55,159 nucleotides of DNA from positions 1-55,159 of the forward strand of contig JBAQTF010000014.1 of NCBI GenBank assembly GCA_049296855.1. Direction: 5' to 3'. Shown here in pieces: positions 7,888 through 44,511 of the stretch. Source of the stretch: Minisyncoccia bacterium (GTDB lineage: Bacteria; Patescibacteriota; Minisyncoccia; Phycocordibacterales; DATDWN01). Within the stretch, counting starts at the first letter, position 1; each line of letters opens with the position of its first letter. The notes below the pieces were generated by a model that made no database searches, was not told the DNA's origin, and saw only the letters and a program-made list of their open reading frames with translations. The position numbers and the translations under genes were made by a program.

Positions 7888-7999
7888 ATATATGTTTTTA
7901 ATAAAATAACTTTCTCTATCCTTACTATTAATAATTTTAATAGAGATGAAGTTATGGAAAACGATTAACGCTATTAATACTAACTGAATAATTTTTGAC

Positions 8000-8055
8000 G
8001 TTGCCGTAAACAATTGGATGTAAAAATAAATTTACATTCAATTTTTTACGGCAAC
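8000..8055. other. Long hairpin upstream of the giant surface-protein gene
   Basis: gttgccgtaaa (8000-8010) pairs with tttacggcaac (8045-8055). Inner stem is atgtaaa / tttacat. Confidence 0.6.
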
Positions 8056-16687: not shown

Positions 16688-18115
16688 TTAGTCTTTTCTA
16701 GGAAACATGTTATCTGGTTTTTTATTTTTTCTTACTGAGTCAATAATATTTTTTGAAGTCTCAGGCAAAAATGGCTTGAGCATGTGCCCAATCTGACCAA
16801 TTTTTTTAACCAAGTTCTGTAATAATTCTTTGTCTTTAGATTCCCACGGCTTTTTTTCTTGTATTTCTCTATCTAACTCTCCAATTTTATCCCATATATA
16901 TGCAATAGCTAAATCCGTTCTAAATTCATTTAGTTTTTCAACGATATACCCATCAACAAAACTATAACTGAAATCTGCATCATTTAGTGGGCTTTCCAAA
17001 TTATCTTCTGCTAATTTCATTATTCTTGATAGTAAATTTCCTAGCCCATTTGCGAGACCAGAATTGTATGCAGTCTTAAACCTCTCCATCGTAAACGGAC
17101 TATCTTCAAAGTTTGAAATTTCTTTTGCTACAAAAAATCTAAAAGCATCTGCCCCATACTCGTTTATGATGTCAAAAGGATTTATAGTATTTCCGAGAGA
17201 CTTAGACATCTTTACCCCACCATCACCTGTCAAAAATCCGTTTATAATAATGTGACTAGTGTTTGGTAGATCAACCGACATAAGCATAGCTTGCCACATT
17301 GCTGATTGTTGGCGAAGATTATCTTTTCCGCAATATTGAACTGGAGCCCCCTCTTTCCAGAATTTATTAAAATTCTTTTCGTCCTCTGGCCAACCTAAAG
17401 TAGAAATGTAGTTTACTAGTGCATCAAACCAAACATACATAATATGGTTATCGTCGTCTGGAACAGGAACACCCCAAGACATTTTTTCTTTCAGACGGGA
17501 AATGGAGAAATCCTCTAGACCTCTACCAACAAAAGCTTTTATTTCGTTGTAACGAAAATCAGGAATGACAAAATTAGGATGATTTTTATAAAAATCCAGA
17601 AGTTTGTCCCCAAATACCGAAAATTTGAAAAAATAATTTTCTTCATTCCTGAGTTCTATTTCGAGTTTTGGATGCAATGGACACTTTCCGTCCTCGAGTT
17701 CTGAATCTGTCTTTTCTAACTCACACCCAACACAGTATTTCGTTTGATAATTCTTTTTATAAATATAACCATTCTTATCACACTTTCGCCAAAACTCTTG
17801 AGCGGCACCTTCATGATGACTGTCTGTCGTACGTATAAAATGAATATCTTCTAGAACTCCAAGGGCTTTTGGGAGTTTTTTGAAACTCTCTGCATATTCA
17901 TCAACATATTGTTTTATATCTTTACCTGCTTCGAGAGCACCTGTTAAGAGTTTTTGCCCATGTTCATCTGTACCTGTATTAAAGAAAACTTCGAAACCTT
18001 GAAGTTTCTTAGCTCGAGCTATAATATCTGCTCTAACAAGTTCCATAGCAAAACCTACATGGGGGTCGGAGTTAACATACGGTAAAGTGGTAGTAATATA
18101 AAAAGGTTTAGACAT
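16688..18115 (-). CDS. metG: Methionyl-tRNA synthetase, short form lacking a C-terminal tRNA-binding domain
   Basis: PYVNSDPHVGFA (HIGH-type motif), KMSKSLGN, Cys knuckle CVGCE...CPLH, 475 aa. Confidence 0.93.
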   Translation of the reverse strand: MSKPFYITTTLPYVNSDPHVGFAMELVRADIIARAKKLQGFEVFFNTGTDEHGQKLLTGALEAGKDIKQYVDEYAESFKKLPKALGVLEDIHFIRTTDSHHEGAAQEFWRKCDKNGYIYKKNYQTKYCVGCELEKTDSELEDGKCPLHPKLEIELRNEENYFFKFSVFGDKLLDFYKNHPNFVIPDFRYNEIKAFVGRGLEDFSISRLKEKMSWGVPVPDDDNHIMYVWFDALVNYISTLGWPEDEKNFNKFWKEGAPVQYCGKDNLRQQSAMWQAMLMSVDLPNTSHIIINGFLTGDGGVKMSKSLGNTINPFDIINEYGADAFRFFVAKEISNFEDSPFTMERFKTAYNSGLANGLGNLLSRIMKLAEDNLESPLNDADFSYSFVDGYIVEKLNEFRTDLAIAYIWDKIGELDREIQEKKPWESKDKELLQNLVKKIGQIGHMLKPFLPETSKNIIDSVRKNKKPDNMFPRKD

Positions 18116-18154
18116 GGTCGGAAAATATTAGACTTGGCTGTTTTAGAACTGAAA

Positions 18155-19234
18155 CTAGCTACTATTTAACATCCTTTCGGTTCTATCAATCTTGTCTTTC
18201 TCAAAGTCATCAAAGAATTCAATTGCCGCGGCAGCAATAGGCACGGCAAGTATAATACCTATAAACCCCGCTAACTGGAAACCAGCAACAAGTGCGATGA
18301 TGGAAACTATTGGAGAGACACCGACAACTTTTTTCACCACAAGAGGATAGATCAGTTGATTTTCAAATTGATGAACTATTAGATAAAGACCTATAACTAA
18401 AACTGCTAAAGGAAGTTGTCCGCTAACAAAAGCAATCATGACCGCTGGGATAGAAGCAAGTATTGGGCCGAAAAGTGGAATAATTTCAAATGCAGCTGCA
18501 AGTGTAGCCAGAAGGAGAGCGTTTGGAACATTGAGAATAAGTAATCCAAGGTATACTAGCATTCCGATAATAATAGCTAGGACTAATTGTCCTTGCATCC
18601 AAAGACCTATTTTTAGTTGAGATCTTTTCCAGAGAGCGGTAATGTATTTCTCATGTTTAATAGGACTAATGGCTTTCAAGAATTTACCGACTCCATCATT
18701 TTCCACAGCAAGATAGAAAGATAGAATTATTATTAGGAAAAATGACAAAATCCCACCAAATACTGTAGCAACAGTACCAAATGCATTTGAAGAAAAACTA
18801 GTAATGATACCGTTTATCTTCGCAATTACTAGATCTATATTTAAACTACTTGTCAGGCCAGCGACAAAAGATTTAGACGATAAGAAATCATTGTTAGCTA
18901 TGGTGTCAGCTACAGATGTAGGATTAAAATAAACAGGAACGTTTCGTAGAAAATCACTTGATTCAGAAAGTAGTGGTAATAATAAGAAAAATACTACACC
19001 CACCAAAAATACGGCCATAGATAGATAAATCAAAATAACGGCAAAAAGTCTCGGTACATTATGTCTAATAAACCATTGAGCCCCAGGCTCGACAGCTGAA
19101 GCTACAACGACAGACATAAGAATAACGAGAACTAAGTCTTTTAGCATAAATAAAAGAGCAAAAAATAATACAACGACTATCGTTTTCACTATTGTCCCGA
19201 CACTAATACTAATAGATTGCTCTTTATACTCCAT
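18155..19234 (-). CDS. AI-2E/PerM-family membrane transporter
   Basis: 359-aa protein with about 8 TM helices and PerM-like organisation. TGTTATTAT lies 6 nt upstream of the ATG. Confidence 0.6.
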   Translation of the reverse strand: MEYKEQSISISVGTIVKTIVVVLFFALLFMLKDLVLVILMSVVVASAVEPGAQWFIRHNVPRLFAVILIYLSMAVFLVGVVFFLLLPLLSESSDFLRNVPVYFNPTSVADTIANNDFLSSKSFVAGLTSSLNIDLVIAKINGIITSFSSNAFGTVATVFGGILSFFLIIILSFYLAVENDGVGKFLKAISPIKHEKYITALWKRSQLKIGLWMQGQLVLAIIIGMLVYLGLLILNVPNALLLATLAAAFEIIPLFGPILASIPAVMIAFVSGQLPLAVLVIGLYLIVHQFENQLIYPLVVKKVVGVSPIVSIIALVAGFQLAGFIGIILAVPIAAAAIEFFDDFEKDKIDRTERMLNSS

Positions 19235-19283
19235 GACTAAATAATAACATTATATGTAGTTAATTAAAAATGCATGATCCAAC

Positions 19284-20678
19284 CTAAATCTGAGATTTTA
19301 CAAAGTTAATGAGCTCACTAACTTGCATCCTCTTTTGTTCACCAGTATCTCTATTTCTAACAGTTACTCCAGCATCCTTCTCGATTGTTTCAAAATCCAC
19401 CGTAACACACCATGGGGTTCCTATCTCATCCTGTCTTCTATATCTCTTTCCAATATTTCCGTTATCATCAAACATAACCGCACCAAATTCTTTTTTGAGA
19501 ATCTTGTAAATTTCACGTGCCTTTTCTACCAATTCTAGTTTATTCTTGAGAAGTGGAAAAACTGCGATTTTCATAGGAGCTATTTTGGGAACAAATTTAA
19601 GATAAATTCTTGTCTCACCGCCAAGATTATCTTCTGTATATGCATCAGACAGTATAGCTAGAATCGTCCTGTCTACCCCAAGTGACGGTTCTATAACATG
19701 GGGGATAAACCTATCCTTACTCTCTTCATCAAAATATGAGATGTCTACACCAGAGGCCGAAGAGTGTGCCCTCAAGTCAAAATCCGTTCGGTATGCAAGA
19801 CCATACAACTCTTTTCTTCCAAATGGATAATCAAACTCTATATCAATAGTTCTTTTTGAGTAGTGCGCCCTATCACTATCAGCAACTTCTAGTTCGTGAA
19901 CATGAGACATATTGAGACCGATTTCTTTGCACCAAGAAAGCATAACTCTTCTCCACTCTTCAAATGATTTCTTCCAATCCGCCTCCTTAACAAAATACTC
20001 AACTTCCATCTGTCTGAACTCGCGAGAACGGAAAACAAAATCTCTCGGAGCAATTTCGTTACGAAATGCCTTACCTATTTGACCCAAACCAAATGGGATT
20101 TTTGGATGTAGCGAATCAAGAACATTTTTAAAATTTACAAACATTCCTCCAGCAGTTTCCGGACGGAGATATGAAACAGAACTTTCATCCTCTGTCGCCC
20201 CAACATGAGTCTTGAACATCATATTAAATTGTCGTGATGGTCCATATTTATGTTGTTTTTTTGTCTTAGAACAAACCAACATTTTCTTATCCTCCTGAGA
20301 CATCTTATCTAAATCCGAATTCTCATTAAGTCTATTGAGAGCTTCTAGAACATGATCATTTCTAAATCTTAGGTGACAATCTACACATTCAACAAGTGGG
20401 TCAGAAAATCCGGAAACGTGGCCAGATGCTTCCCAAACCTTTGGATTCATAAGTATTGCTGCATCAATTCCATACATATCTTCTCTATCGGAAATAAACA
20501 TTTTCCACCAAAGATTTTCTATATTATTAGATAGCTCTGTACCATATGGACCATAATCCCAAGTTCCAGCCAATCCTCCATAAATTTCTGAACCTTGAAA
20601 AATAAACCCTCGGCGTTTACAGAGAGAAACTATTTTTTCCATCACTTCTTCATCTTTATTTTTAGTTTTTTCTACCAT
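19284..20678 (-). CDS. glyQS: Glycyl-tRNA synthetase (dimeric class II type)
   Basis: RRGFIFQGSEIYGGLAGTWDYGPYG, FRNEIAPR, GVDRTILAIL. Confidence 0.93.
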   Translation of the reverse strand: MVEKTKNKDEEVMEKIVSLCKRRGFIFQGSEIYGGLAGTWDYGPYGTELSNNIENLWWKMFISDREDMYGIDAAILMNPKVWEASGHVSGFSDPLVECVDCHLRFRNDHVLEALNRLNENSDLDKMSQEDKKMLVCSKTKKQHKYGPSRQFNMMFKTHVGATEDESSVSYLRPETAGGMFVNFKNVLDSLHPKIPFGLGQIGKAFRNEIAPRDFVFRSREFRQMEVEYFVKEADWKKSFEEWRRVMLSWCKEIGLNMSHVHELEVADSDRAHYSKRTIDIEFDYPFGRKELYGLAYRTDFDLRAHSSASGVDISYFDEESKDRFIPHVIEPSLGVDRTILAILSDAYTEDNLGGETRIYLKFVPKIAPMKIAVFPLLKNKLELVEKAREIYKILKKEFGAVMFDDNGNIGKRYRRQDEIGTPWCVTVDFETIEKDAGVTVRNRDTGEQKRMQVSELINFVKSQI

Positions 20679-20720
20679 ATCATTATCCTATCAGGCTTTC
20701 TAATTTGAGCAAATATTAAA

Positions 20721-22628
20721 CTACTGTAAAATTCTATCATCACCTTGTTTAAATTCTGGATCAGAATATTTTGTCGTCACTGATTCGAGTTCTAATCTGA
20801 TAGATGAGTTAGTATAAGTATCAGTAGAAGTCACTGTCGCCCCTGAAGCTAGAAATACATCATTTCCTATTTGACTTAGGCTGGGAATCAAACCTACTTT
20901 GAACGAAACTTCTCTAGGGGAATATGTAAACCCAGTACCAGAATTCACATTACCCACATTCCAAGTGACCATCCTATTATCAGAAGTAAAGTTTACCCTT
21001 TCGGAAGCTGGGGAGGTCTCACCTTTCCAAGTAACTCCAAGTGGAAGTACAGCTGAAACAGCTGTGTCTTTCAAATCATTTGTAGTATTAGTCAATGTCC
21101 AAGTAATCGTATACGTAGACTCTTTATCTGCACGAGGAGGAATAGGGCCACTATTTGTAAGTTGACCATAAGCCCTATATGACTTCATTGTCACGGCGAG
21201 TGTAGAATCCATTTTGATTACTAAATCCGCAGACGACGTCATCGTCATCGCCTCCGTTCCAGAACGGTCCCCCATCATCGCTACGTGGACATCAATATGA
21301 GGATTTTTTATTGATCTAAGTTGGACAGGGTTGGTAAATGCACCAACAGAAAACACTACCATACCACTATCTCCTGGTGACATACTGGCTAGATTACTTA
21401 AATTATTTTTATCCCAGATAATAGTATTATCAACAGATCTGTAAAAACCATTTCCACTAAGTTTAACGTTAGTTCTGTCAAAAACATTACCTGAAATAGT
21501 CGCTTCTATTTGACTATCTAGAATCCTATCGGGTACAGTGTTCTGCCATGAAATAGTAACTGGTGCTAACTGTCCAACCTGTATAACATTATTTTGCCCA
21601 GAACTAACAGTTAAATCAAAAAATGATTTACGTATACCTATTGTAACGGTAGAAACAGCTAAAAGTGTATCAAAATCTTTTGAATCATCTCTACTTTGTG
21701 TTCCAGCAGAAAATCTAAATGACCTATCTTCTGAATTCTGTCCGACTAGAGTTCCTCTTATTGTCAATTTTTTATTATCTCCATTTTTTAGATCACCTAT
21801 ATTCCAAACAGAATTATTACGTAAAGGCTTTAGACTAGAATCTTTATAAGTGAATCCGTACGGATACTCAACTTTGATCATAGAATCTTTCATCACCACA
21901 CTTGAGTTTGAAGTTATATCAACATTTAAAACCAATTCTTGACCAGAATTCACCTCTTGAGGATATACAACATTGAGTAATATCGGGGACGAACCAATAA
22001 GGACTTCGTACTTTTTCTCTTTTGAAAAGGTGGCATTTGAACCTTTTACTTTGTACTCAAGCCTAAACGTAAACCCCTTAATTACATCTTTTTCACCAAA
22101 AAGCAGGGTACGGACAGAGTAGTCTTTACTTTGCCCTTTACCTATTGTACCGATGGATGTTGTCTCTCGGCTAATAATTTTTTGACTATCGTCAATTGAT
22201 GCTGCACCATTTGGATACTCTGTATGTAAAATAACATCCTCAATATCAGCACTATTTAAATTATCTATTGAAAGACCGATAGAGAGCTCCTCTCCAGAAG
22301 ATATGGAACTTGGAGCAATAACTTTAATATCAACGTTATTTGAGGAAATCATATTAAAACCCCCAAAAAAAATATATGAAGCTATAATTAGAGAAATCAC
22401 GAAAAAAACTACCGAGATAACAAAAAACTTATTAAAGAATGAACTACCATTTTTAGTCATATCTAAAGATGAGAAACCGAAAAACGGTCTGTCGCCCCAA
22501 CTTTTAGGAACGTCAAGATCGTGTTCTGGTACAGGAGTACGTTTCTCCTTTGGAACAACATACTCATTACGAGAATAAAGTGTCCTTTTTAGACGTTCTA
22601 TACTACTTTCTTCTGACTGAGGTTCCAT
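20721..22628 (-). CDS. Large membrane-anchored extracellular protein (beta-sandwich repeat-like), hypothetical
   Basis: 635-aa ORF with one TM helix (FFVISVVFFVISLIIASYIFFGGF) and a Ser/Thr/Asn-rich ectodomain. TGTTATAAT lies 6 nt upstream of the ATG. Confidence 0.75.
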   Translation of the reverse strand: MEPQSEESSIERLKRTLYSRNEYVVPKEKRTPVPEHDLDVPKSWGDRPFFGFSSLDMTKNGSSFFNKFFVISVVFFVISLIIASYIFFGGFNMISSNNVDIKVIAPSSISSGEELSIGLSIDNLNSADIEDVILHTEYPNGAASIDDSQKIISRETTSIGTIGKGQSKDYSVRTLLFGEKDVIKGFTFRLEYKVKGSNATFSKEKKYEVLIGSSPILLNVVYPQEVNSGQELVLNVDITSNSSVVMKDSMIKVEYPYGFTYKDSSLKPLRNNSVWNIGDLKNGDNKKLTIRGTLVGQNSEDRSFRFSAGTQSRDDSKDFDTLLAVSTVTIGIRKSFFDLTVSSGQNNVIQVGQLAPVTISWQNTVPDRILDSQIEATISGNVFDRTNVKLSGNGFYRSVDNTIIWDKNNLSNLASMSPGDSGMVVFSVGAFTNPVQLRSIKNPHIDVHVAMMGDRSGTEAMTMTSSADLVIKMDSTLAVTMKSYRAYGQLTNSGPIPPRADKESTYTITWTLTNTTNDLKDTAVSAVLPLGVTWKGETSPASERVNFTSDNRMVTWNVGNVNSGTGFTYSPREVSFKVGLIPSLSQIGNDVFLASGATVTSTDTYTNSSIRLELESVTTKYSDPEFKQGDDRILQ

Positions 22629-22662
22629 CCCTAAATTATAACATATCTTATATTTGCAAAAC

Positions 22663-23247
22663 CTATAATTGACTCTCTTTTAGTGCTTTGTTTATTAACC
22701 CAATAATTTTCACTTTATTTTCTTTTATTTTCTGTAAAATAAGTTCGTTCCATTCGGTAGTGTTTTTTAGAAAAATTTCTGTGTTCTCGTTAATAACCAC
22801 ATAACCAAGTTGATATAAAATCCTTAAGACAATGAGAACTTCAAAATCTGGGGTGCTCACCTCTCTAAGTGACTCTAAAAACTCAAAACCAGATTCGATC
22901 GTCTCAAATATTTCTGGATGAGGAGATTCACCTGGAATCATTTTCATCAAAACAGATGCGACTTGCGCCATTGTCACATGAGAGTACTCAGGATATTCAT
23001 AAAAGAAACTTCCATTCTCTACAACATTTGTGATTTTCCAACCATTTTTACCTTTGATACAAGACAGAGAAACATATGTATACTCTTGAAGTGCCGAACG
23101 AAGTTTGGAAACCGAAAGTCTAGCTGAACGTGCAGAGGCAATTATAAGCCCGAGATCACGAGTCAGAACATGCAACATTATATTAGCCTCGCCAAAAGGG
23201 GTACGTTTTAAAATAATTCCCGGAGTAGTATAAATGTGATACGACAT
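22663..23247 (-). CDS. recO: DNA repair protein RecO
   Basis: N-terminal OB-fold-like GIILKRTPFGEANIMLHVLTRDLGLI, 194 aa. Confidence 0.8.
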   Translation of the reverse strand: MSYHIYTTPGIILKRTPFGEANIMLHVLTRDLGLIIASARSARLSVSKLRSALQEYTYVSLSCIKGKNGWKITNVVENGSFFYEYPEYSHVTMAQVASVLMKMIPGESPHPEIFETIESGFEFLESLREVSTPDFEVLIVLRILYQLGYVVINENTEIFLKNTTEWNELILQKIKENKVKIIGLINKALKESQL

Positions 23248-23270
23248 TGTTTTATTATGACCATAGGAAA

Positions 23271-23357
23271 TTATAAATACAAGAAGTACTCTCGTGGTAC
23301 GACATTGTTTTCTAGAGCCTAGCGAATTAGAAACACAAGAAGCACCCTTGTGGCGAC
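23271..23357. repeat. Family-3 repeat, two cores (reverse orientation) between ileS and recO
   Basis: aagaagtactctcgtggtacgac (23281-303) and aagaagcacccttgtggcgac (23337-57). These are the rc of the gtcgtaccacaagggcacttc type. Confidence 0.7.
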
Positions 23358-23360
23358 TTA

Positions 23361-26300
23361 TTATTTCATAATGGAGAAAGATATCTCCCCATCTGATTCA
23401 ACGATATAATTTTGTTTTTCTTTTGAATATAAAATTTCCGTTATTTGAGTTGGTAACTTTATCATCTCAACATAATAATCAATTAAATTTTGTTTATTTG
23501 TACAGACAACTATTTTTATATTATCACTTGGACTAAGTTTCTCTGTCTTTCTGGCATCTTGAATAGCTCGTATAATATCTCGGGCAATTCCTTCTTCTTT
23601 TAATTCTTCCGTAAGATTTGTGTCTAATTTTATTTCTTTTCCAACTTTAACTTTTTTAACGTTGACCTCATCAGCAATAATATCTAATAGTTCTCGTGAA
23701 AATTTTTGTGGGATAGTAAGTGAAGCTAATGGTTGCCTAACTTTATGTCCTGCTTTTTGACGAAGTTCTAATGCACCTGAAACAACTTCTCGGACTTTTT
23801 GCATATCCTGAAGTAGAATTTCATCCACTATATCGCCTTTTGGCCAATCACATAGATGCACACTTTCTGGGTCACTATTTGATTTTATTTTTTGATATAC
23901 ATCTTCGGCAAAGAAAGGTGTAAATGGCGCCATATATTTCACAAACTCGAAAAGAACAAAAAGTGTGGTGGACAATGCATCATTTCTCTCTTGTTTATTG
24001 TCTGATTTGAAACGATCACGCGAACGACGAATATACCAAGTAGAAAAATCGTTTATAAAATCACGAGTTAGACGTGCAGACTCAAACACTTGAAATTTTT
24101 CAAGTGACTCTGTTCCGTTTTTTATAAGCTGACCTAATCTACTCAAAATCCATTTATCCAAAACATTTTTACTTTGGTTATTTGGTCTTGTATTACTGTC
24201 CTTATATAACTCATAGAAAGCCAGGATATTTAAGGCTGGATTAAAAACTTTTTTAAGTATTTCATCAACCGTTTTCTCGTCAAAGTTTTTGGAATCCCCT
24301 GGCTGGTTAACTGTGTACATCCACAAACGTAAAGCGTCCACTCCATATTTATCCATCAATTCCCAAGGATCCAAAATATTACCAATAGACTTTGACATCT
24401 TCCTCCCATCCTTATCCAAGATATGTCCAAGACAAATGACATTTTTATATGCTTTCCCTCTACCCATCAAAATCCCGATAGCATGTAAAGTGTAAAACCA
24501 CCCTCTGGTTTGATCTATAGCTTCAGAAATAAAATCTGCGGGGTAAGCAAGTTTTTCTTTATTAAAAGGATGATGATCCTGAGCAAAAGGCATACTACCT
24601 GAATCAAACCAAACATCCATAACTTCTTTTACCCTTTTTAGTGGATCACCTTTTTCATCAACAAGCTCAACAGAATCTATATATGGCTTATGTAAATCAA
24701 TTTCATATTTATCGTTATGTGGCATTTTTACGAAATCAATCTCTCTTATCTCTGCATTATCGAAATTTTTAAATTCTTTTGTTATTTTTGAAAGATTTCT
24801 ATACGAAAAACCCTTTGAAATCATTTCGATAGCACGACATGGGGCTCCATGAGAAATGATGAGAATATTCTTATCTTTATATTTTTCATCAGTTTCATAC
24901 ATAAATTTACTTAATCTTTGTAAAACTTCATTGTACGATTCCCCATCAGAAACTTTAAAAGCATACCTGTCTTCACTTTTGTTACGCACAGCAAAGAAAT
25001 CTTCCACAGACTTATGGTTAAATTCTCGACCAGTGTTCCATTCTCCTAAGCCAGAATCAGTAATAATTTTATCCTTTGAAAGTCCTATGATTTTTGCAAT
25101 CAAAACTGCAGTCTCCTGTGTTCTAGAAAATGGCGAAACAATGATTAGATCAATAGACTTGTCAGACAGGAATCTGGCAGTTTCTTTTACTTTCTCCGTA
25201 CCACTATTTGTCAAAGGATCTGAAACATCGAAATTTAGGTTTAATATTTTTTTTACATTTCCTTCTGTCTCACCATGTCGCATTACAAAATACTTATTAC
25301 CAGATTTTTTAGAATATTTCTTCAAATCTTCAACACTTCCTACAACTCGATAATTACCATCTTTGTCAGACCAGATAGGAAGTGGCGTCCCCCAATATCT
25401 CTCGCGGCTTATTGCCCAATCTTTTATTTCACGAAGCCACTCACCAAAACGTCCTTCTTTTATATGCTCTGGTTCCCAATGAATATCTTCATTTTCCCTT
25501 ACTAGTTCATCGCGTAATTTGGATATAGCGATATACCAAGAATCCCTAGCATAGTAGATAAGCGGGGTGCTACATCTCCAACAATGAGGATATGAGTGTT
25601 CATATTTTTCTTTTTTAAAAAGTAAACCTCGGTGAGCTAAATCCTTTATAATACCCACTGCAACTTCCTCGTCTTTTACAAACCGATCAGACAAAAAACC
25701 CATTCCGTCAGCAAAATACCCATCCTCTTTTACAAGGTGGTATTTTGGCAAACCGATTTCATTTCCCAGAACAAAATCGTCCTGACCATACATGACAGCA
25801 GTATGGACAACTCCTGTTCCATCTTCTGTGTTGACAAAATCCGCAGAATAAACTTGATACGACTTTTCAAAAGCAATCTTATCTTTTTCTCCAAACTTTT
25901 CTCTCATAAAAGGATATAGTGGTTCGTATTCCATTCCAACACATTCGCTCCCTTTGTGTTCAGCAATTATCTCGAATGGTTCTGTGATTATCGCAAGTCT
26001 ATCCTTTGCTAAAACTAAAATCTCGTCACCGACTTTTGCCTCGACATAAGTAATGTCTTTACCAACTGCGAGTGCAACATTTCCAGGTAAAGTCCAAGGA
26101 GTCGTCGTCCATGCCAAAAAATAACCCTTATCAAATCCCTTTAATTTAAACTTCACTGTAACTGACAAATCTTTATCATCTTGATACCCCTGTGCTAATT
26201 CATGAGAAGATAATGCCGTTCCACAACGAGGGCACCACGGCAAAACTTTGTAGTCTTTGTACAAAAGTTTCTCCTCGTCTACTGTCTTTAGAATATTCCA

Positions 26301-26801
26301 AACGGACTCTATATAGTCCGTATCAAAAGTATAGTAAGCATCTTTCTTATCAACCCAATACCCAATACGATCGGTAAAAACTTCCCAATCATGAACATAA
26401 TCAAACACACTTTGCTTACACTCTTTATTAAACTTCTCTATTCCATAAATCTCAATTTCTTTTTTTGACTTTAGTCCAAGCTTTTTCTCTATTTGTAATT
26501 CAACAGGCAAACCATGTGTGTCCCAGCCACCTTTTCTCCGTACATGAAATCCCTGCATAGTTTTATAACGAGGAATGATATCTTTAAAAACCCGGGCTTC
26601 GAGATGATGCAAAGCTGGTTTTGCATTTGCCGTTGGCGGACCTTCATAGAAAACAAAATTACCCTTTGAAGACGATCTCTCCAGAGTCTTTTTAAAAATC
26701 TCTTTTTCATTCCAAAACTCTAGTATCTTCTCTTCTCTTTTTGATAGATCACTTTTGAGTGTTTTTGGAGCTTTATCTTCGCTACCTTTCATAGAAGCCA
26801 T
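23361..26801 (-). CDS. ileS: Isoleucyl-tRNA synthetase (type 2-like) with an inserted histidine-phosphatase (phosphoglycerate-mutase-like) domain
   Basis: PPTANAKPALHH, KMSKSIGN, DQTRGWFY. The insert is YFVMRHGETEGN...SPFSRTQETA...ISHGAP, lying between PLPIW and DLHKPYID. The start is taken at MASMKG (26801) or MKG (26792). Confidence 0.9.
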   Translation of the reverse strand: MASMKGSEDKAPKTLKSDLSKREEKILEFWNEKEIFKKTLERSSSKGNFVFYEGPPTANAKPALHHLEARVFKDIIPRYKTMQGFHVRRKGGWDTHGLPVELQIEKKLGLKSKKEIEIYGIEKFNKECKQSVFDYVHDWEVFTDRIGYWVDKKDAYYTFDTDYIESVWNILKTVDEEKLLYKDYKVLPWCPRCGTALSSHELAQGYQDDKDLSVTVKFKLKGFDKGYFLAWTTTPWTLPGNVALAVGKDITYVEAKVGDEILVLAKDRLAIITEPFEIIAEHKGSECVGMEYEPLYPFMREKFGEKDKIAFEKSYQVYSADFVNTEDGTGVVHTAVMYGQDDFVLGNEIGLPKYHLVKEDGYFADGMGFLSDRFVKDEEVAVGIIKDLAHRGLLFKKEKYEHSYPHCWRCSTPLIYYARDSWYIAISKLRDELVRENEDIHWEPEHIKEGRFGEWLREIKDWAISRERYWGTPLPIWSDKDGNYRVVGSVEDLKKYSKKSGNKYFVMRHGETEGNVKKILNLNFDVSDPLTNSGTEKVKETARFLSDKSIDLIIVSPFSRTQETAVLIAKIIGLSKDKIITDSGLGEWNTGREFNHKSVEDFFAVRNKSEDRYAFKVSDGESYNEVLQRLSKFMYETDEKYKDKNILIISHGAPCRAIEMISKGFSYRNLSKITKEFKNFDNAEIREIDFVKMPHNDKYEIDLHKPYIDSVELVDEKGDPLKRVKEVMDVWFDSGSMPFAQDHHPFNKEKLAYPADFISEAIDQTRGWFYTLHAIGILMGRGKAYKNVICLGHILDKDGRKMSKSIGNILDPWELMDKYGVDALRLWMYTVNQPGDSKNFDEKTVDEILKKVFNPALNILAFYELYKDSNTRPNNQSKNVLDKWILSRLGQLIKNGTESLEKFQVFESARLTRDFINDFSTWYIRRSRDRFKSDNKQERNDALSTTLFVLFEFVKYMAPFTPFFAEDVYQKIKSNSDPESVHLCDWPKGDIVDEILLQDMQKVREVVSGALELRQKAGHKVRQPLASLTIPQKFSRELLDIIADEVNVKKVKVGKEIKLDTNLTEELKEEGIARDIIRAIQDARKTEKLSPSDNIKIVVCTNKQNLIDYYVEMIKLPTQITEILYSKEKQNYIVESDGEISFSIMK

Positions 26802-26805
26802 ATTA

Positions 26806-28509
26806 TCACATTTTCTCTGGAATTTTAATCCCCAATAAATTAAGACCGGAAGCCATAACTTGAACAAATACCTTCGTTATGGCCAAACGATAAGAAGAAG
26901 ATTTGTCTTCTACATCTATTATTTTGTGTGAGGCATAAAATGAATTGAACTCACCCGCCAGTTCAATGAGATACGTTGCAATATGGTGTGGAGCATATTC
27001 CATTCCCGCTCGAGCAACAATGTCTGGAAACCTCTCAAGATACCTCTCAAGATTTGTCGTCTCCCACTCACTCGGAAGCTTGGTTTCTGATTTCACAAAG
27101 GGGTCCCCTTTGTGGAATTCTTTTTCGGATTTTTTCAGGACAGATTTTGCTCTCACAGCGGAATACTGCAGATATGGCCCTGAATCCCCCTCAAAAGATA
27201 TGGATTTATCAAAATCAAAAATAATATCACCGCCGATAGCCTGCCGAAGTATCGAGTATTTTATCGCACCGATTGCTATTTGCTCAGCCAAAATTACCTT
27301 TTGTGTGTCATCAATATCCTTATGAAGTTGGCCACTGTCCCACATCTTTTCCAAAACCCTATCTTGCGTTTGCTGAATCAGAGCTTCCGCAGAAATGATA
27401 TTCCCTTCTCGCGATGACATTTTCCCTGTTGGAAGTTTCAAAAGCCCATGTGACAAATGAGTCAACTTTCCTTTTAAATCTGGAAAAACTTCACCAATAG
27501 CCACTTCCACCACTTTGAAAAACGAATCCTGTTCATTTGCCGTGACTGTTATGGACATATCATATGAAAACCAATCTTTTTTTATCTGAGCCAGACCGAG
27601 CTCTTTGGCTTCATATGTCGGCAGACCTTCAGAGTTTAGAAAGACTCTTGTGTGGGTTTTTGGCTCAAAGTTTTCTCCTTTGAAGATAACTGCACCCTTC
27701 ACACCTTTTTCGAAAACTTTACCAACATTTTCCAAAACTAACTCTTTACCGACTTCTCCACTTTCACTTTCAAAAAAGTGATAATCAAAATGATTATCTA
27801 ATTTTTCGTATAATTTTTCAAAATATTCTACCGATTCCTGCCTACCACCCTCATATATTTTATTTATCTCTGGATCACTTTCATCGTATATTTTTGTGTT
27901 TATTTTTGTTATTTCCCGTTTTGCTTTTTCGTCATCTTCATATGCCTTATGTCCAAAAGCATAAGCTTCTTTTATAGAAATGCCTTGCTTTAACGCCCAG
28001 ACGGCTTTGGCGACATGCAAACCAACATCACCATGATATGTAGCAGTTTGCACTTCTGCACCGTTTGCTTTAACAATTCTTGCTACAGACTCCCCTATAG
28101 TATTGTTCATCAAATGCCCTATGTGAAATGTTTTAAAAGGGTTTGGTTGAGTGTGTTCAATGAAAACTTTGTAACCTTTTGCATGTTCATTTTTTCCGTA
28201 TTCACTATCTTTCAAAATATCTTTCACAACATCACCAAAATATTCTTTGTCGAAAGAAAAATTTATAAATCCTGGAGCGACAACCCTGATTTTGATTTGC
28301 TTTAGCAAATCACCCTGAGTAAGTCGAAGGGTTATCTCCTCTGCTAGGTCAATCGGTTTATTCCTCAGCTCTTTTGCATAGGCCATAGCAACATTCGTCG
28401 AATAATCCCCCTTATCGAGATAAACAGAGGGTGTCAGTCTAACCTTAGGATTTTTAATTCCTTTTTTCTCCAGGAAACTCTTTATTTCTTTTTCCAATGT
28501 TTCCTTCAT
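26806..28509 (-). CDS. argS: Arginyl-tRNA synthetase
   Basis: NPFKTFHIGHLMN (HIGH motif), 567 aa, with an ArgRS-like N-terminal additional domain. Confidence 0.9.
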   Translation of the reverse strand: MKETLEKEIKSFLEKKGIKNPKVRLTPSVYLDKGDYSTNVAMAYAKELRNKPIDLAEEITLRLTQGDLLKQIKIRVVAPGFINFSFDKEYFGDVVKDILKDSEYGKNEHAKGYKVFIEHTQPNPFKTFHIGHLMNNTIGESVARIVKANGAEVQTATYHGDVGLHVAKAVWALKQGISIKEAYAFGHKAYEDDEKAKREITKINTKIYDESDPEINKIYEGGRQESVEYFEKLYEKLDNHFDYHFFESESGEVGKELVLENVGKVFEKGVKGAVIFKGENFEPKTHTRVFLNSEGLPTYEAKELGLAQIKKDWFSYDMSITVTANEQDSFFKVVEVAIGEVFPDLKGKLTHLSHGLLKLPTGKMSSREGNIISAEALIQQTQDRVLEKMWDSGQLHKDIDDTQKVILAEQIAIGAIKYSILRQAIGGDIIFDFDKSISFEGDSGPYLQYSAVRAKSVLKKSEKEFHKGDPFVKSETKLPSEWETTNLERYLERFPDIVARAGMEYAPHHIATYLIELAGEFNSFYASHKIIDVEDKSSSYRLAITKVFVQVMASGLNLLGIKIPEKM

Positions 28510-28676
28510 TATTTTATAATAACATTTTTCTAACTTAAAAGAATTTTTGATCCTTCATTATATTCAAATTAATCAAAAGTAATGACTAATTAGTTATCAA
28601 CAGTTACATTGATAATAAATGATAGACTATATATCATTACTTATAATCCTATTAAGGTTTATTAAGGTAAGACTCT

Positions 28677-28922
28677 ATGGCGAACCAATACATCACAATT
28701 AAACAGGCTTCAAAAATTTTAGGTGTCACTACCCTTACCCTTCGAAATTGGGATAAGAATGGTAAGTTAAAAGCTCATCGCCACCCTATGAATAACTATC
28801 GAGTTTACAACATTGAAGATCTCGAAAAAGTAATCATGGAAATTGAGGCCAACACTGGACTTCGAAAAAGTACAAAAAAAGAGATTAAAAAACTTATTGT
28901 TAAACACTTATACGATGAGTAA
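28677..28922 (+). CDS. Small MerR/excisionase-type HTH DNA-binding protein
   Basis: ITIKQASKILGVTTLTLRNWDKNGKL, 81 aa, with no effector domain. Confidence 0.7.
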   Translation: MANQYITIKQASKILGVTTLTLRNWDKNGKLKAHRHPMNNYRVYNIEDLEKVIMEIEANTGLRKSTKKEIKKLIVKHLYDE

Positions 28923-29034
28923 CAGAATATAAGTAAAATCTTTTGTCAATAGCTATAAATTACTGAGGCGAAAACTTTTATACTGTGATCCATAAAAACT
29001 CCACTTTTGCCCAAACACAATCTGACTTATCTAA

Positions 29035-29063
29035 TTGACCTAAATGTTTATAGAGGGTAATAT
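29035..29063 (+). promoter_or_regulatory. Sigma70-type promoter of folA (-35 TTGACC, 17-nt spacer, -10 TAATAT)
   Basis: TTGACC at 29035-40 and TAATAT at 29058-63, followed by a 21-nt leader with AAGGAG 5 nt before the ATG. Confidence 0.6.
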
Positions 29064-29084
29064 CGTTTTAGAAAAGGAGTCCTG

Positions 29085-29591
29085 ATGAACGGAATTACTA
29101 TAATCGTGGCAATGGACAGAAACCGAGTCATCGGAAAGCAGGGTGAGATTCCTTGGAGTGGACACCTCCGAGACGACATGAAACACTTCAAGGACTACAC
29201 CACGGGAAAGACCGTAGTGATGGGGAGAAAGACTTGGGATTCAATTCCACCCAAGTTCAAACCTTTACCAATGCGTGAGAACGTGATTATGACGAATGAC
29301 CAGAGGTTCAAAGCTTCTGATTGCTTTCTCATCCACAGTCCTGACGCGATCAAAAGTCTGTCTGGGATTCAAGAGATCTGTATCATTGGCGGTGCAGAAA
29401 TCTACAAACTCTTCCTGCCGATGGCAGACAAACTCATTGTTACGATCGTCGATACAGAAGTCCTAGGTGGTGACGCGTTCTTTCCAGAAATCACCGAGGA
29501 ATGGGACGAACGACTGTTGTCAATTCACAAAGCTGACGAAAGAAATTTGTTCCCCTTCTCCATCTTCGAATACACAAAAGATCCATTCTAG
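29085..29591 (+). CDS. folA: Dihydrofolate reductase
   Basis: IVAMDRNRVIGKQGEIPW...VVMGRKTWDSI...IGGAEIY. Confidence 0.9.
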   Translation: MNGITIIVAMDRNRVIGKQGEIPWSGHLRDDMKHFKDYTTGKTVVMGRKTWDSIPPKFKPLPMRENVIMTNDQRFKASDCFLIHSPDAIKSLSGIQEICIIGGAEIYKLFLPMADKLIVTIVDTEVLGGDAFFPEITEEWDERLLSIHKADERNLFPFSIFEYTKDPF

Positions 29592-29602
29592 TTCTGACAT
29601 TC

Positions 29603-29635
29603 TCGACCGCGCCCACAAAGCGCGGTCGATTTTTA
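29603..29635 (+). terminator. GC-rich rho-independent terminator after folA
   Basis: tcgaccgcgc-ccacaaa-gcgcggtcga followed by ttttt. Confidence 0.85.
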
Positions 29636-29636
29636 T

Positions 29637-29664
29637 TTGACTGACTACAAGAAAATGCTAGTAT
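29637..29664 (+). promoter_or_regulatory. Sigma70-type promoter of the thyA-like gene (-35 TTGACT, 16-nt spacer, extended -10 TGcTAGTAT)
   Basis: TTGACT at 29637-42 and TAGTAT at 29659-64. The leader has AAAGGAG 5 nt before ATG 29701. Confidence 0.6.
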
Positions 29665-29700
29665 CAAAAACAGAAACCAGTTCCAGTAAAAGGAGTTGTG

Positions 29701-30624
29701 ATGGACCCGAAGTATCTACCATACGAGAATCGTCAACCAAACACTCAGTACAAGAACCGTCTGAGTTCTATCCTGAAATGTATCAAAAGGCAGGATATCT
29801 TCACGAAGAATCCGTTCCAGACACAGGGCCGTTATAGTGTGAAGACTCTCAGTCCAATGGTTTTAAAACTCTCAAACGGATTCCCGATCGGAACCGAACG
29901 TAACATGAAGATGTTCTGGGTAACACCAATCGGAGAGCTCCTCGCGTTCATTCATGGAGTTCGTGATGCTCGTGTCCTTTCCGAAGAGTGGGGTGTGAAG
30001 TGGTGGCTCAAGCAGTGGGCCACACCTGAAAAGTGTGCTGACTTTGGACTTGAACATCCAGATATGGGACCGGGCTCCTACGGTGGAGCCTTCGAATACG
30101 TTGCACCAGATGGAACAACGTACAATCAGTTCAAGGAAGTACTGAAACAGATGAGAGATCGACCAGATGTGACGACTCACAAAATCACGAGCTGGCTTCC
30201 TCATTACACAATCGGCCATAACGGGAGACAACGAAAAGTCATCGTGGCGCCGTGTCACGGAGACATCGAGATGTACATCGTCAACGGCCGACTGACACTT
30301 CGGATGGATCAAAGATCTGCCGACTTCCCGATTGGAGTTCCGTCCAACACAATCCAGTACGCTGCGCTCACCATCATGATCGCACATGTACTCGGACTCG
30401 AACCAGACATGCTGATCCACTCAACACATGACAGTCACTTCTACGAAGACCAGCTCGAAAACGTCAGAGAGTTGGTTAAGTGTCCGACCTACCGGTACCC
30501 AAGTGTCTACCTGACTGAGGAAGGTCAGAAAGTAACAGACCTCTTCGATTTCAGACCGAGTCACTTTAGACTCGAAGATTACCACCCTGGACCAGCGATG
30601 AACAAAATCCCTGTTACGACCTAA
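29701..30624 (+). CDS. thyA: Divergent thymidylate synthase (ThyA family)
   Basis: Catalytic APCH, QRSADFPIGVPSN (uracil-specifying Asn retained), HDSHFY. The N-terminal DRTGTGT motif is not recognisable. Confidence 0.8.
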   Translation: MDPKYLPYENRQPNTQYKNRLSSILKCIKRQDIFTKNPFQTQGRYSVKTLSPMVLKLSNGFPIGTERNMKMFWVTPIGELLAFIHGVRDARVLSEEWGVKWWLKQWATPEKCADFGLEHPDMGPGSYGGAFEYVAPDGTTYNQFKEVLKQMRDRPDVTTHKITSWLPHYTIGHNGRQRKVIVAPCHGDIEMYIVNGRLTLRMDQRSADFPIGVPSNTIQYAALTIMIAHVLGLEPDMLIHSTHDSHFYEDQLENVRELVKCPTYRYPSVYLTEEGQKVTDLFDFRPSHFRLEDYHPGPAMNKIPVTT

Positions 30625-39942: not shown

Positions 39943-40014
39943 GGTGGCTACTGGGAGTCGAACCCAGACAGAGAGCTCCACAAGCTCGCGTGCTACCGCT
40001 ACACCATAGCCACC
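39943..40014 (-). tRNA. tRNA-His (GUG) with encoded G-1
   Basis: Hand-folded cloverleaf: G-1 opposite discriminator C, anticodon loop UUGUGGA, T-arm CUGGG-UUCGACU-CCCAG. No encoded CCA. Confidence 0.9.
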
Positions 40015-40023
40015 ATTAAATCC

Positions 40024-40184
40024 AAGTTTTCAAAAAATGACTTTCGGGAGCATCCGCAGGTCTGAAGCTTGGATTTGTCAACGACCCGAGTAAGACGAGG
40101 GCTCTTTACAAATTCAGACCGAGGACCAGCCGAAAGCTTCGCAGGAAAGCTTGAGGTTCTCCTAAAAGCATTTTTTGAAAACTT
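40024..40184. ncRNA. GC-enriched structured region of about 160 nt closed by a perfect 16-bp stem (candidate small RNA or palindromic element)
   Basis: aagttttcaaaaaatg (40024-39) pairs with cattttttgaaaactt (40169-84). Interior helices are ggtctgaa/ttcagacc, atttgt/acaaat and ctttcgg/ccgaaag. AAGCTT occurs three times. Confidence 0.5.
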
Positions 40185-40253
40185 ACCCATTTATACCAGA
40201 AAATAAGCTTAAAATCTAGCCAGAAAGAGTTTTTTCTGTATACTTATCGACAT

Positions 40254-41516
40254 ATGAAAAAGTTTGACCCTTATGACTTCTCAAAAAAAGTGATTGATGG
40301 GGTGCCTGTGTACTACAAAAATTTACCTCTAGCACCTTGCATACACATCAATATAATTTTTAGCACGGGCTCAATTTATGACCCAAAAGGAAAAGAAGGC
40401 CTATCACATTTTTTGGAACACATGATATTTGACGGGTGTCCCTCCTTACCAAACAAAAAAGCTATAAAAGAATGGTCAAAAATCCACACTTTAAACTCTT
40501 GGAATGCATGGACCTGGTTTACAAACACCAACTACCATCTCAAATGTTTACCAGAAAAAATTGATATAGTGCTTTCTGGTATGAAAGATATGATTTTTAA
40601 TCCACTTCTTAAAGATGAGGACGTAGAACATGAACGAAGTGTTATCACTCAAGAAGCATGGGGAGTATACAAAAATGAAAAATATTTATCTTTTTGTAAG
40701 AAGACACTGGATAATGTGTACCACGGCACGGCACGGGTAAATACAACTAGTCCGCTCGGTTGGCCAGATAGTATAAAAAATATATCTCAAAAAGATGTTG
40801 CTCTGTGGCACAGAACAAACTATGGTAAAGGAAATTTCTCTATTGTCATAAGTGGAGCCATAGACAGCAAAACTTTGGAGAAAATGGGAAAATTTCTAAA
40901 AACAATTCCTCAAGCGAAATTAGAAAGGATAAAATTTGGCGAACTACAAAAACCCAAGAAAAACTTTATAACAAAAACTGGTGAGGAAATCGGCGATCCG
41001 AGAGAACAGGCAGAGATAAGTTTTGAAAGAGCAATTGCAACCAAATCAGCACCAAGTGAGGAAATACAACTTATGACAAGCTCTCTTCTTCAAGACATCT
41101 TGTATGAAAGATTGAGGACAGAAAAAGCTTTGTGTTACGGGATATCAACCGGTTCATATATACAGAAAGATTTTTTGTCTTGGACTGTCAACTTAAAAAT
41201 AAAGGAAGAAAATGTAGATGTTGTTAAAAAAGAGTTTTGGAAAGCCTTAGGAGACATAATCTCAGGAAAAGAAAAAAGCCGTTTCGATGTCCTAAAGAAA
41301 GTGCGAATAGACAGACTCAAATCAATAGAAGAAGTGACGGAAGACATAACTCAAAACGTGCTCATGAATATATTGAAATACGAAAAAATTATACAAAAAG
41401 AAAAAATGATTTTAGAAAGACAGAAAATATCTTATAAAGATGTTGTCTCCTGCCTCAAAAACGCATTCAAAAAAGAGTGGACTGTTATTGAGGTAATCCT
41501 ACCTGCGAAAAAATAA
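40254..41516 (+). CDS. M16-family (insulinase-like) zinc peptidase
   Basis: HFLEHMIF (HxxEH), 420 aa. Confidence 0.85.
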   Translation: MKKFDPYDFSKKVIDGVPVYYKNLPLAPCIHINIIFSTGSIYDPKGKEGLSHFLEHMIFDGCPSLPNKKAIKEWSKIHTLNSWNAWTWFTNTNYHLKCLPEKIDIVLSGMKDMIFNPLLKDEDVEHERSVITQEAWGVYKNEKYLSFCKKTLDNVYHGTARVNTTSPLGWPDSIKNISQKDVALWHRTNYGKGNFSIVISGAIDSKTLEKMGKFLKTIPQAKLERIKFGELQKPKKNFITKTGEEIGDPREQAEISFERAIATKSAPSEEIQLMTSSLLQDILYERLRTEKALCYGISTGSYIQKDFLSWTVNLKIKEENVDVVKKEFWKALGDIISGKEKSRFDVLKKVRIDRLKSIEEVTEDITQNVLMNILKYEKIIQKEKMILERQKISYKDVVSCLKNAFKKEWTVIEVILPAKK

Positions 41517-41535
41517 AACTATTAATTAATAATCT

Positions 41536-43050: not shown

Positions 43051-43114
43051 AAATTTATTTCAAAAGTTCGTTGACTTATGACGCAAAACCATAACATAGC
43101 CTTGCTCCCCTCAC

Positions 43115-43199
43115 TGGTGCTCGGGAGAGGACTCGAACCTCCACACCTTACGGCACACCCACCTCAAGGGTGCTTGTCTACCAATTTCAACACCCGAGC
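43115..43199 (-). tRNA. tRNA-Leu (GAG), long variable arm, CCA encoded
   Basis: rc reads GCUCGGG...CACCC-UUGAGGU-GGGUG...GGAGG-UUCGAGU-CCUCU-CCCGAGC-A-CCA. Confidence 0.9.
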
Positions 43200-43767: not shown

Positions 43768-43790
43768 AACTGAGTTAATCTAACACAAGA

Positions 43791-44510: not shown

Positions 44511-44511
44511 A

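Follow-up and report, generated by a model that had tools for sequence, protein, structure and literature searches.

A predicted histidine phosphatase domain nested in a type-2 isoleucyl-tRNA synthetase of Paceibacteria

Can an essential enzyme of translation hold a second, unrelated enzyme within its catalytic fold, and what would that second enzyme do there? The question is raised by ileS, the isoleucyl-tRNA synthetase (IleRS) gene on a 55,159-nt stretch of DNA from a Minisyncoccia bacterium (contig JBAQTF010000014.1 of GenBank assembly GCA_049296855.1, positions 1 to 55,159), which as a whole is called the window here. Aminoacyl-tRNA synthetases are among the most conserved enzymes, and to our knowledge nested catalytic domains are rare in the bacterial ones, apart from the editing domains. 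An earlier note on this DNA had proposed that a histidine phosphatase domain is inserted in frame in the synthetase. The analysis that followed indicates that the protein is, almost certainly, a type-2 IleRS of Paceibacteria whose knuckle hairpin holds, in its loop, a complete histidine phosphatase domain of branch 1, and that the insertion is old, widespread and under selection.

The insertion and its host enzyme

The gene was found to be complete (23361..26801, minus strand, as are all ileS features given below) and to consist of a single uninterrupted open reading frame (ORF) encoding 1146 aa plus the stop codon. The protein scored 869 bits with the NCBIfam ileS profile TIGR00392, for which the cut-off is 621. 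It reached 810 bits with the type-2 enzyme (IleRS2) of P. megaterium (8c8w), 335 bits with the type-1 enzyme (IleRS1) of S. aureus and 575 bits with the yeast enzyme. With a profile score above the cut-off and a greater closeness to IleRS2 than to IleRS1, the protein is, as judged from its sequence, a type-2 IleRS.

The alignment with 8c8w, the closest solved IleRS2, is interrupted at one point. Residues 18-497 correspond to residues 9-478 of the chain and residues 699-1055 to 484-851, and about 201 residues stand for 5 residues (479-483) of the solved enzyme. This inserted segment (aa 498-698, 201 aa; 24708..25310) comprises the phosphatase module and two short linkers. Between the conserved WGTPLPIW (aa 470-477, 25394-25371) and DLHKPYID (aa 702-709, 24698-24675) 224 residues were counted. 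The earlier note had estimated about 220 and had placed the insert at 24715-25305, within a few bases of the limits found here. The Pfam family tRNA-synt_1 was split in two by His_Phos_1, its first half covering aa 25-499. The single ORF, the Pfam split and the 8c8w alignment together bear out an in-frame domain insertion, as had been claimed, and not a neighbouring gene. The composition is also host-like, since the G+C content of the insert (0.30-0.35) falls in the range of 0.29-0.46 found over positions 20000-30000, the rest of the gene having 0.33-0.39.

Both signatures of the histidine phosphatase superfamily that had been recognised in the insert were located. Pfam His_Phos_1 (PF00300) matched aa 505-673 (24783..25289) with an E value of 5.6e-27 and 95.1 bits, the cut-off being 21.7. 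The RHG motif lies at 25272..25280, at the very coordinates proposed before, and provides R508 of the phosphate pocket, H509 as the predicted phospho-accepting nucleophile, and G510. The second arginine of the pocket is R560 (25122..25124), located in SPFSRTQETA (25136-25107). The predicted general acid (proton donor) is E587 (25041..25043) in GLGEW (25052-25038), a role that we take from knowledge of branch-1 histidine phosphatases, by alignment position only. The SHG motif (24846..24854), part of ISHGAP (24857-24840), contributes H651 as the second histidine of the pocket. The PF00300 profile, the RHG motif, the second arginine and second histidine, the acidic donor and the alpha/beta fold of the family were thus all found.

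Conservation was evaluated on 282 modules extracted from 270 proteins and, separately, on an alignment of 106 sequences of the window's clade. R508 and H509 were conserved in all of the 274 non-gap modules and R560 in 282 of 282. Position 587 was occupied by E in 269 of the 282 modules and by D in 11, and the position of H651 by H in 272 of 277 non-gap modules, so that the relatives retain the residues on which the earlier note had relied. Within the 106-sequence clade the catalytic residues were invariant (E587 nearly so), on a par with the active-site residues of IleRS, and outside of them the module was the least conserved part of the protein. When very diverse modules were compared, invariance was limited to the core that binds phosphate and performs catalysis, along with a few structural residues. 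Further cap residues are invariant in the module type of the window, including R607 and R613, and these arginines hint at a second anionic group on the substrate of that type. On these alignments the catalytic core is shown to be under purifying selection, and the module is apparently a working enzyme.

A full-length AlphaFold2 model was obtained with a mean pLDDT of 89.2 and a pTM of 0.81, and its best fold match was the P. megaterium IleRS2 8c8v (E 1e-86; TM 0.81, normalised to the target). The module and its linkers reached pLDDT values of 87-97 in this model, and the module modelled alone 91.9. The nearest solved fold to the module was the Hydrogenobacter phosphoserine phosphatase (4ij5/4ij6; TM 0.77-0.79, 26% identity), and further matches included HFP 9mmh, mycobacterial hydrolases, TIGAR, CobC, Rv2419c and PhoE. 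The top 50 fold matches were all members of the histidine phosphatase family, and SixA, Sts and PGAM5, the protein phosphatases of the superfamily, were not among them. By sequence, the matches in the PDB were CobC, PspA, Fru-2,6-bisphosphatase and PhoE. The family chemistry leads us to predict that the module is a phosphomonoesterase acting via a phospho-histidine.

A set of curated subfamily profiles was also considered. The scores for dPGM (NF038349, 67.3 vs a cut-off of 225; NF002339, 30.4 vs 316) and GpmB (NF002901, 43 vs 261) were all under the cut-off; the label "phosphoglycerate-mutase-like" given earlier therefore holds for the fold and fails for dPGM membership. The candidates CobC alpha-ribazole phosphatase (TIGR03162, 71.5 vs 162.9; NF011580, 49.6 vs 250), PspA phosphoserine phosphatase (NF045917, 55.5 vs 350, although 4ij5/4ij6 is the closest fold) and SixA (TIGR00249, 31.2 vs 74.5, with a match limited to the N-terminal part) were rejected as well. 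Since no curated subfamily threshold was reached, the module is regarded as a superfamily member outside any named enzyme family. An intein or other self-splicing element was discarded, because the Pfam scan gave no Hint or endonuclease family and the conserved PHN is succeeded by D, E, K, S or A, with neither Cys, Ser nor Thr conserved there as a splice-junction residue. The embedded modules, being slightly acidic on average (net charge -3.6, pI 6.3), give no support to a generic RNA-binding surface.

The insertion site lies past the WGTPLPIW strand, a hairpin and a helix, and ahead of DLHKPYID and DVWFDSG (second Rossmann half). In the class I fold topology, the loop after this strand would exit the sheet on the active-site side. 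The small excursion that holds the insertion forms a zinc knuckle in the IleRS2 of P. megaterium, as well as in other clades with the insertion (in P0136, CEAC precedes and CECG follows the module); in the window's clade the knuckle cysteines have been lost. The module lies inside this excursion, so that the architecture is that of a domain in a knuckle in a Rossmann fold, which also holds the editing domain. The upstream junction (aa 478-502, 25296..25370), SDKDGNYRVVGSVEDLKKYSKKSGN, runs from the IleRS hairpin and helix into a conserved KKSGNK linker with the cassette breakpoint, and its N502 is invariant in the 106-sequence clade. The downstream junction (aa 689-701, 24699..24737), DFVKMPHNDKYEI, is the linker that returns to IleRS ahead of DLHKPYID, and F690, P694, H695, N696 and E700 are nearly invariant in the same clade. 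No second module was found within the window.

The synthetase part is intact. The N-terminal portion (aa 1-497, 25311..26801) comprises the first Rossmann half, the CP1 editing domain, CP2 and the WGTPLPIW strand with the hairpin and helix. The C-terminal portion (aa 699-1146, 23361..24707) comprises the rest of the Rossmann fold, KMSKS (aa 801-805, 24387-24401), the anticodon-binding domain and the type-2 C-terminal domains (DUF5915), with Pfam matches for Anticodon_1 at aa 882-1025 and for DUF5915 at aa 1057-1139. KMSKS, the editing-domain motifs and the type-2 C-terminal domains are thus all present, and from the invariant active-site and editing columns and the housekeeping synteny we infer that aminoacylation and editing are kept despite the insertion. 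The class I HIGH signature has the non-canonical G/AXHH form, ALHH (aa 63-66, 26604..26615), and GIHH was observed in its place in several relatives. It has been shown experimentally that the G/AXHH variant raises the mupirocin resistance of IleRS2 up to 1000-fold (hyper-resistance; PMC10485003), and the Deinococcus IleRS2 likewise has ALHH (PMC10485003).

The neighbourhood of ileS in the window is of a housekeeping type, with metG, a class II synthetase gene, a gene for a DUF11 protein, recO, argS, folA and thyA. Directly upstream is argS (26806..28509, minus strand; Pfam) and directly downstream a recO-like gene (22663..23247, minus strand; Pfam RecO_N). The ORF listing starts ileS at a TTG (23361-26867) that overlaps the end of argS, whose stop codon is at 26806. 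The ATG at 26801, which the N-termini of homologues fit, is the likely start; it leaves a gap of 4 nt to argS, suggesting translational coupling. The synthetase genes form a cluster, since metG (475 aa, short form) and the class II synthetase gene (464 aa, HGTP_anticodon) at 16688-20678 (minus strand), as well as argS, all lie at most 12 kb from ileS. No extra domain was found in the MetRS, ArgRS or class II synthetase encoded near the window's ileS. Other features were recorded on their own account. A protein of 1184 aa (4459-8013, minus strand) has a peptidoglycan-binding domain as its sole Pfam match, and a similar large protein is encoded near a standalone phosphatase in locus L089. An antisense ORF of 165 aa (24856-25353, plus strand) lies wholly within the module coding region, upstream junction included, and was taken as a by-product of composition and not as a gene. 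Six tRNA genes were detected by Rfam within 39943-55159, the one at 55090-55159 being cut by the window end.

Spread, exchange and other placements of the module

The distribution of the architecture was assessed in proteins and in genomes. PF00300 was present in 120 of the 120 best listed homologue clusters (59-74% identical, 1023-1184 aa), which originate from NCBI, JGI, ENA and Logan assemblies and carry the names Patescibacteria, Parcubacteria, Zambryskibacteria and Minisyncoccia. When a single genome of each GTDB species was scanned with two peptide patterns specific to the module, at least 324 stretches encoding relatives were found. The best 80 of these are 80 distinct loci; those named by taxon are all Patescibacteria (Zambryski-, Nomura-, Taylor- and Vogelbacteria, Paceibacterota/Paceibacteria and Saccharibacteria) and the remaining few have only the label "bacterium". 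The module and both IleRS flanks (N and C) were colinear and in frame in 78 of the 80, with insertions of 196-221 aa, and the remaining two are cut by contig ends. The same architecture across independent assemblies excludes a chimeric contig, so that the misassembly considered in the earlier note can be set aside. Two short contigs of one metagenome-assembled genome (L004 and L045, isolate SRP135725_co2_473) each encode a module-bearing IleRS fragment, the modules sharing 55% and 40% identity with that of the window, respectively; they represent either two ileS copies or a mixed bin.

The module evolves at a different pace from its host. In the 106-sequence clade the mean identity was 67% for the IleRS core and 43% for the module. 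The difference was far greater in certain pairs of close relatives, with 94% core and 38% module identity for P0002 and P0004, 93% and 37% for P0002 and P0011, 97% and 50% for P0076 and P0098, and 87% and 36% for P0038 and P0043. Along P0002 and P0004 the identity changed sharply at the linkers, being about 95-100% through KKSGNK, about 35% over the module and about 95% again from YE.DLHKPYID; at the DNA level, the ileS flanks of their syntenic loci were 86-90% identical and the modules 53-65%. At least 18 module clusters (at 50% identity) were found in one clade, and 5 of the 14 tight core clusters (at least 80% core identity) contained mixed module clusters. The module types include "GEW...SHGAP", to which the window belongs, "GEH...THEH" and a short form without the cap region. 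Such sequence profiles indicate that the module is swapped like a cassette between near-identical synthetases.

In other lineages, the phosphatase is encoded by a separate gene. Standalone relatives of about 195 aa were located immediately upstream of ileS in the four cases looked up (P0192, P0223, P0220 and P0237). Three of these (P0192, P0223 and P0220) lie between argS and an ileS without insertion (959-984 aa, knuckle cysteines kept), with gaps of 1-10 nt or an overlap of 8 nt. In the case of P0237 the upstream neighbour is not argS, and the contig holds only the first 183 aa of the downstream IleRS. The order argS-ileS-recO-DUF11 around the standalone genes is the same as in the window. 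The argS-(phosphatase)-ileS order was seen in L081, L085, L087, L090 and L091, with recO in the same position in L081, L087, L090 and L091. No remnant of a standalone phosphatase was found between argS and ileS in the insertion-bearing loci, and 91 of 91 loci had one module each. A small, poorly conserved ORF without Pfam family was observed in the argS-ileS spacer of the close relatives L090 (2307-2759, 150 aa) and L091 (2546-2767, 73 aa); both occupy the position of the standalone phosphatase and do not match the module profile. The adjacent phosphatase and ileS genes are probably co-translated. Whether as one chain or as adjacent genes, the phosphatase and IleRS are kept together in different lineages, and this operon version is the strongest evidence of a functional, non-accidental association.

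In order to find the module in other proteins, 1.84 billion representative proteins were searched with the insert only, giving 8004 matches at E ≤ 1e-3 and 35 at E ≤ 1e-30. The best 150 of the 8004 matches were mostly IleRS or IleRS fragments with the module at the window's site. Tandem double modules occur in the IleRS P0194, P0176 and P0189. Other sites in IleRS were found in P0184, P0169 and P0248. One of them lies within the knuckle, another follows WFESGSMPYA, and a third is located past the KMSKS region, where the anticodon-binding domain begins. The valyl-tRNA synthetases (ValRS) P0260 and P0150 have a single module following ISPQWF, plus another one or three that follow WWGH(R/Q)IPVWY, giving up to 4 copies, and the second of these sites is homologous to the window's site in IleRS. 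P0231 is a third ValRS with the module. A C-terminal module was found in TsaC/Sua5 proteins (P0208 and three further clusters). Among standalone proteins, which are otherwise of about 190-200 aa, P0212 has two modules.

The window-type insertion site is shared by two sub-lineages of IleRS2: the window type is nearest to bacterial IleRS2, and the P0138 type is nearest to eukaryote-like IleRS (681 vs 651 bits). The modules are not grouped by host, as the module fused to TsaC has 50% identity with one from an IleRS and that of the ValRS P0231 is nearer to IleRS modules than to the other ValRS modules. Taken together, the operon, multi-site, ValRS and TsaC versions and the cassette exchange make a purely accidental insertion unlikely.

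TsaC/Sua5 fusions in Patescibacteria (P0281-P0399) were found with various partners, most often the MGMT DNA-binding domain (PF01035) and further TruB, a 2H phosphoesterase/2'-5' RNA ligase-like domain, NUDIX, GNAT, methylpurine glycosylase and the histidine phosphatase module. Two unusual IleRS were also observed. P0186 (1066 aa) combines the phosphatase insertion with a C-terminal GNAT domain and, in the editing-domain region, an in-frame REP-associated tyrosine transposase (RAYT; IS200-like) domain. The two domains are at aa 326-472 and 935-1063, and the RAYT match scored 81.3 with the NCBIfam profile (cut-off 80); the protein may be a real triple mosaic or the product of a disrupted gene. 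In the P0169 cluster (P0271-P0275) IleRS has two modules at non-standard sites and is encoded on contigs of up to 1.06 Mb, of which the 1.06-Mb contig may be a near-complete small genome.

Possible roles of the phosphatase

In the predicted pocket, R508, R560 and H651 would hold the terminal phosphate, H509 would attack it to form the phospho-histidine while E587 would protonate the leaving group, and water would then free the phosphate. This family chemistry suggests a phosphomonoesterase and not a glycolytic mutase. The roles suggested in the earlier note, hydrolysis of a phosphorylated nucleotide or tRNA-linked species or else a moonlighting metabolic activity, are conjectures. We propose that the phosphatase is a functional partner of IleRS, and of ValRS in other lineages, and that selection would keep the pair together. 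Given the varying attachment site and the existence of a separate-gene form, the need may be for proximity or equal dosage and not for a fixed geometry.

As to the substrate, a small phosphomonoester is favoured over RNA by the fold and by the mildly acidic surface. Enzymes that face variable targets follow a pattern in which the core is frozen and the specificity regions can be exchanged. The frozen core of the module, its fast-evolving cap and C-terminal regions and the exchange of whole modules thus suggest as target a variable small compound bearing a phosphate. In addition, the ALHH hyper-resistance signature on the same IleRS makes it plausible that the IleRS of this lineage has been under inhibitor pressure. 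The module might then strip the phosphate from a compound that would otherwise disturb the charging of isoleucine and valine, providing a built-in protection or detoxification with a logic comparable to that of the mupirocin-hyper-resistant ALHH of the same enzyme. We put forward tentatively, as a possible reading, that the module is a protective or detoxifying phosphatase guarding isoleucine and valine charging. The broader proposal appears doubtful, namely that Patescibacteria have an unrecognised protective layer on tRNA charging, in which modules built into IleRS and ValRS, or translationally coupled to them, would counter inhibitors that bear a phosphate, or attacks by phosphorylation on the synthetase or the tRNA, as an antidote carried by the synthetase itself.

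Several points weigh against the protective reading. Relaxed constraint plus recombination could produce the fast evolution and exchange of the modules. In Patescibacteria many unrelated domains are fused to translation-related enzymes such as TsaC, which means that a fusion by itself says little about a common function. The defence models of PADLOC-DB gave no match for the module, the standalone P0192 or the whole P0004. Finally, we know of no natural phosphomonoester inhibitor of IleRS or ValRS.

Alternatively, the module could be an ordinary metabolic phosphatase for small molecules, similar in type to phosphoserine phosphatase, PhoE or CobC, that rides on a highly and constantly expressed essential gene of a compact genome and has no mechanistic link to aminoacylation. 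All of the nearest solved structures are small-molecule metabolic phosphatases, the sequence matches in the PDB are of the same kind, and the variable attachment site and the frequent fusions of unrelated functions in these bacteria would fit. This explanation is nevertheless somewhat unlikely, as the link with IleRS recurs independently (four insertion sites, tandem copies, a tightly packed upstream gene) and extends to ValRS, and the curated thresholds of CobC, PspA and dPGM were missed. Moreover, a fixed-substrate housekeeping enzyme is not expected to show 38% module identity in hosts that are 94% identical.

A second alternative would be the repair of a phosphorylated macromolecule, for instance removal of a 2'/3'-phosphate or pyrophosphate from the CCA end of tRNA, or of a phosphate placed by a toxin kinase on the synthetase (e.g. 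on the KMSKS loop). Toxins that pyrophosphorylate tRNA 3' ends and HipA-type kinases that phosphorylate synthetases are known, as are the protein-directed superfamily members SixA, PGAM5 and Sts-1. The module is tethered to two tRNA-charging enzymes, its insertion sites bracket the KMSKS segment in some lineages, and cassette diversification fits a conflict scenario. What is conserved across the family is the phosphate-binding core only, with no specificity residues, and some modules have no cap. Such a repair role is, however, quite unlikely on the evidence of the fold neighbours, which are small-molecule enzymes, with SixA, Sts and PGAM5 missing from the top 50, and of the slightly acidic embedded modules, which offer no generic RNA-binding surface. 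TsaC is not known to bind tRNA ends, and we know of no histidine-phosphatase RNA end-healing enzyme.

Product removal was considered as a third alternative, in which hydrolysis of PPi or AMP from adenylate-forming enzymes would pull amino-acid activation forward. By established enzymology, the hosts IleRS, ValRS and TsaC all form an acyl-adenylate from ATP and release PPi and later AMP, and tethering would increase the local concentration. It is very improbable, given that MetRS, ArgRS and the class II synthetase of the same loci have no module and that a fixed, universal substrate leaves the rapid diversification and the exchange of module types unexplained. Pyrophosphatase activity is not an established property of this branch.

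The occurrence at several sites and in several copies, the cassette-like exchange and the in-frame RAYT transposase-like domain of P0186 could be taken as signs of a selfish, intein-like or mobile insertion tolerated by an essential gene, or the domain could be a non-catalytic structural, dimerisation or ligand-binding one (pseudo-enzyme). We consider this less probable still, since the full catalytic set is invariant over 282 modules that are otherwise about 30-40% identical, Pfam gave no Hint or endonuclease domain, no Cys, Ser or Thr is conserved after PHN, and the model shows the module well packed within the mature protein. An artefact of assembly or gene calling (chimeric contig), for which no support was found beyond the window being a single metagenome-type contig, has a negligible probability in view of the same architecture in the 120 listed clusters and 78 of the 80 best loci, the continuous frame and the host-like composition.

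The finding concerns a second, unrelated enzyme inside the catalytic fold of an essential synthetase, across many species of a major uncultured radiation. If the phosphatase acts on a charging-related target, it would represent a new form of quality control, repair or resistance in translation, and would point to isoleucine and valine charging as the target of an unknown class of inhibitors or modifications that bear a phosphate. If it is merely a co-expressed metabolic enzyme, it shows the extent of domain nesting that is possible in reduced genomes, and it provides synthetase engineering with a natural scaffold whose permissive sites are defined.

Comparison with known systems

The earlier note was aware of no described synthetase with this insertion, and none was found here: the literature searched (full text) gave no description of a synthetase with a histidine phosphatase domain, and a 2026 survey that covered 96,219 IleRS sequences along with their domain architectures makes no mention of a phosphatase domain. 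Public databases hold these proteins under automatic names, e.g. "class I tRNA ligase family protein", which means that the sequences are known and the feature is undescribed.

The window's IleRS has in common with the IleRS2 of P. megaterium (8c8u/8c8v/8c8w) and T. thermophilus (1ile) the scaffold, the editing domain, KMSKS and DUF5915. It differs from them in the roughly 201 extra residues, a second and unrelated enzyme, in place of a 5-residue loop, and, in the window's clade, in the loss of the zinc-knuckle cysteines around that loop, which other insertion-bearing clades keep. The module in turn shares with the standalone branch-1 phosphatases (PspA/iPSP1 4ij5, CobC 6nru/6e4b, PhoE 1h2e, Rv2419c and HFP 9mmh) the fold (TM 0.72-0.79), the size of about 200 aa and the catalytic set. 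In contrast to them, with which it has 20-26% identity, it is embedded in or packed against a synthetase and its cap is highly variable or deleted.

A phosphatase joined to a nucleic-acid enzyme has a precedent in the RNase H/acid phosphatase of actinobacteria (PRK07238; M. tuberculosis Rv2228c type), in which a CobC-like phosphatase is fused end to end with RNase H, whereas the window's module is a nested insertion. With PRK07238 the window's module scored 65 bits, P0192 80 and P0186 90, against a cut-off of 326. We know of no explanation for that fusion. An IleRS with an extra catalytic domain is known in ileS_w_GNAT (NF040702), where the GNAT domain is terminal and not nested as the phosphatase is; membership of the window's protein was rejected (317.5 bits vs a cut-off of 1999). 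A histidine phosphatase domain is also present in tRNA-related machinery, in the TFIIIC subunit tau55 (2yn0), which gave a weak sequence match (E 5.9e-4) and a fold match to the module. The tau55 domain is eukaryotic, N-terminal and part of a transcription factor, and is distant from the module.

The CP1 editing domain is likewise a hydrolytic insert in the same Rossmann fold, which can thus be seen to accommodate nested catalytic domains. CP1 occurs universally in IleRS, ValRS and LeuRS, occupies another site and hydrolyses mischarged tRNA, whereas the phosphatase module is lineage-specific, of unrelated fold and exchangeable. An ordinary IleRS2 scaffold and an ordinary member of the histidine phosphatase superfamily have thus been brought together, and it is their combination that is out of the ordinary.

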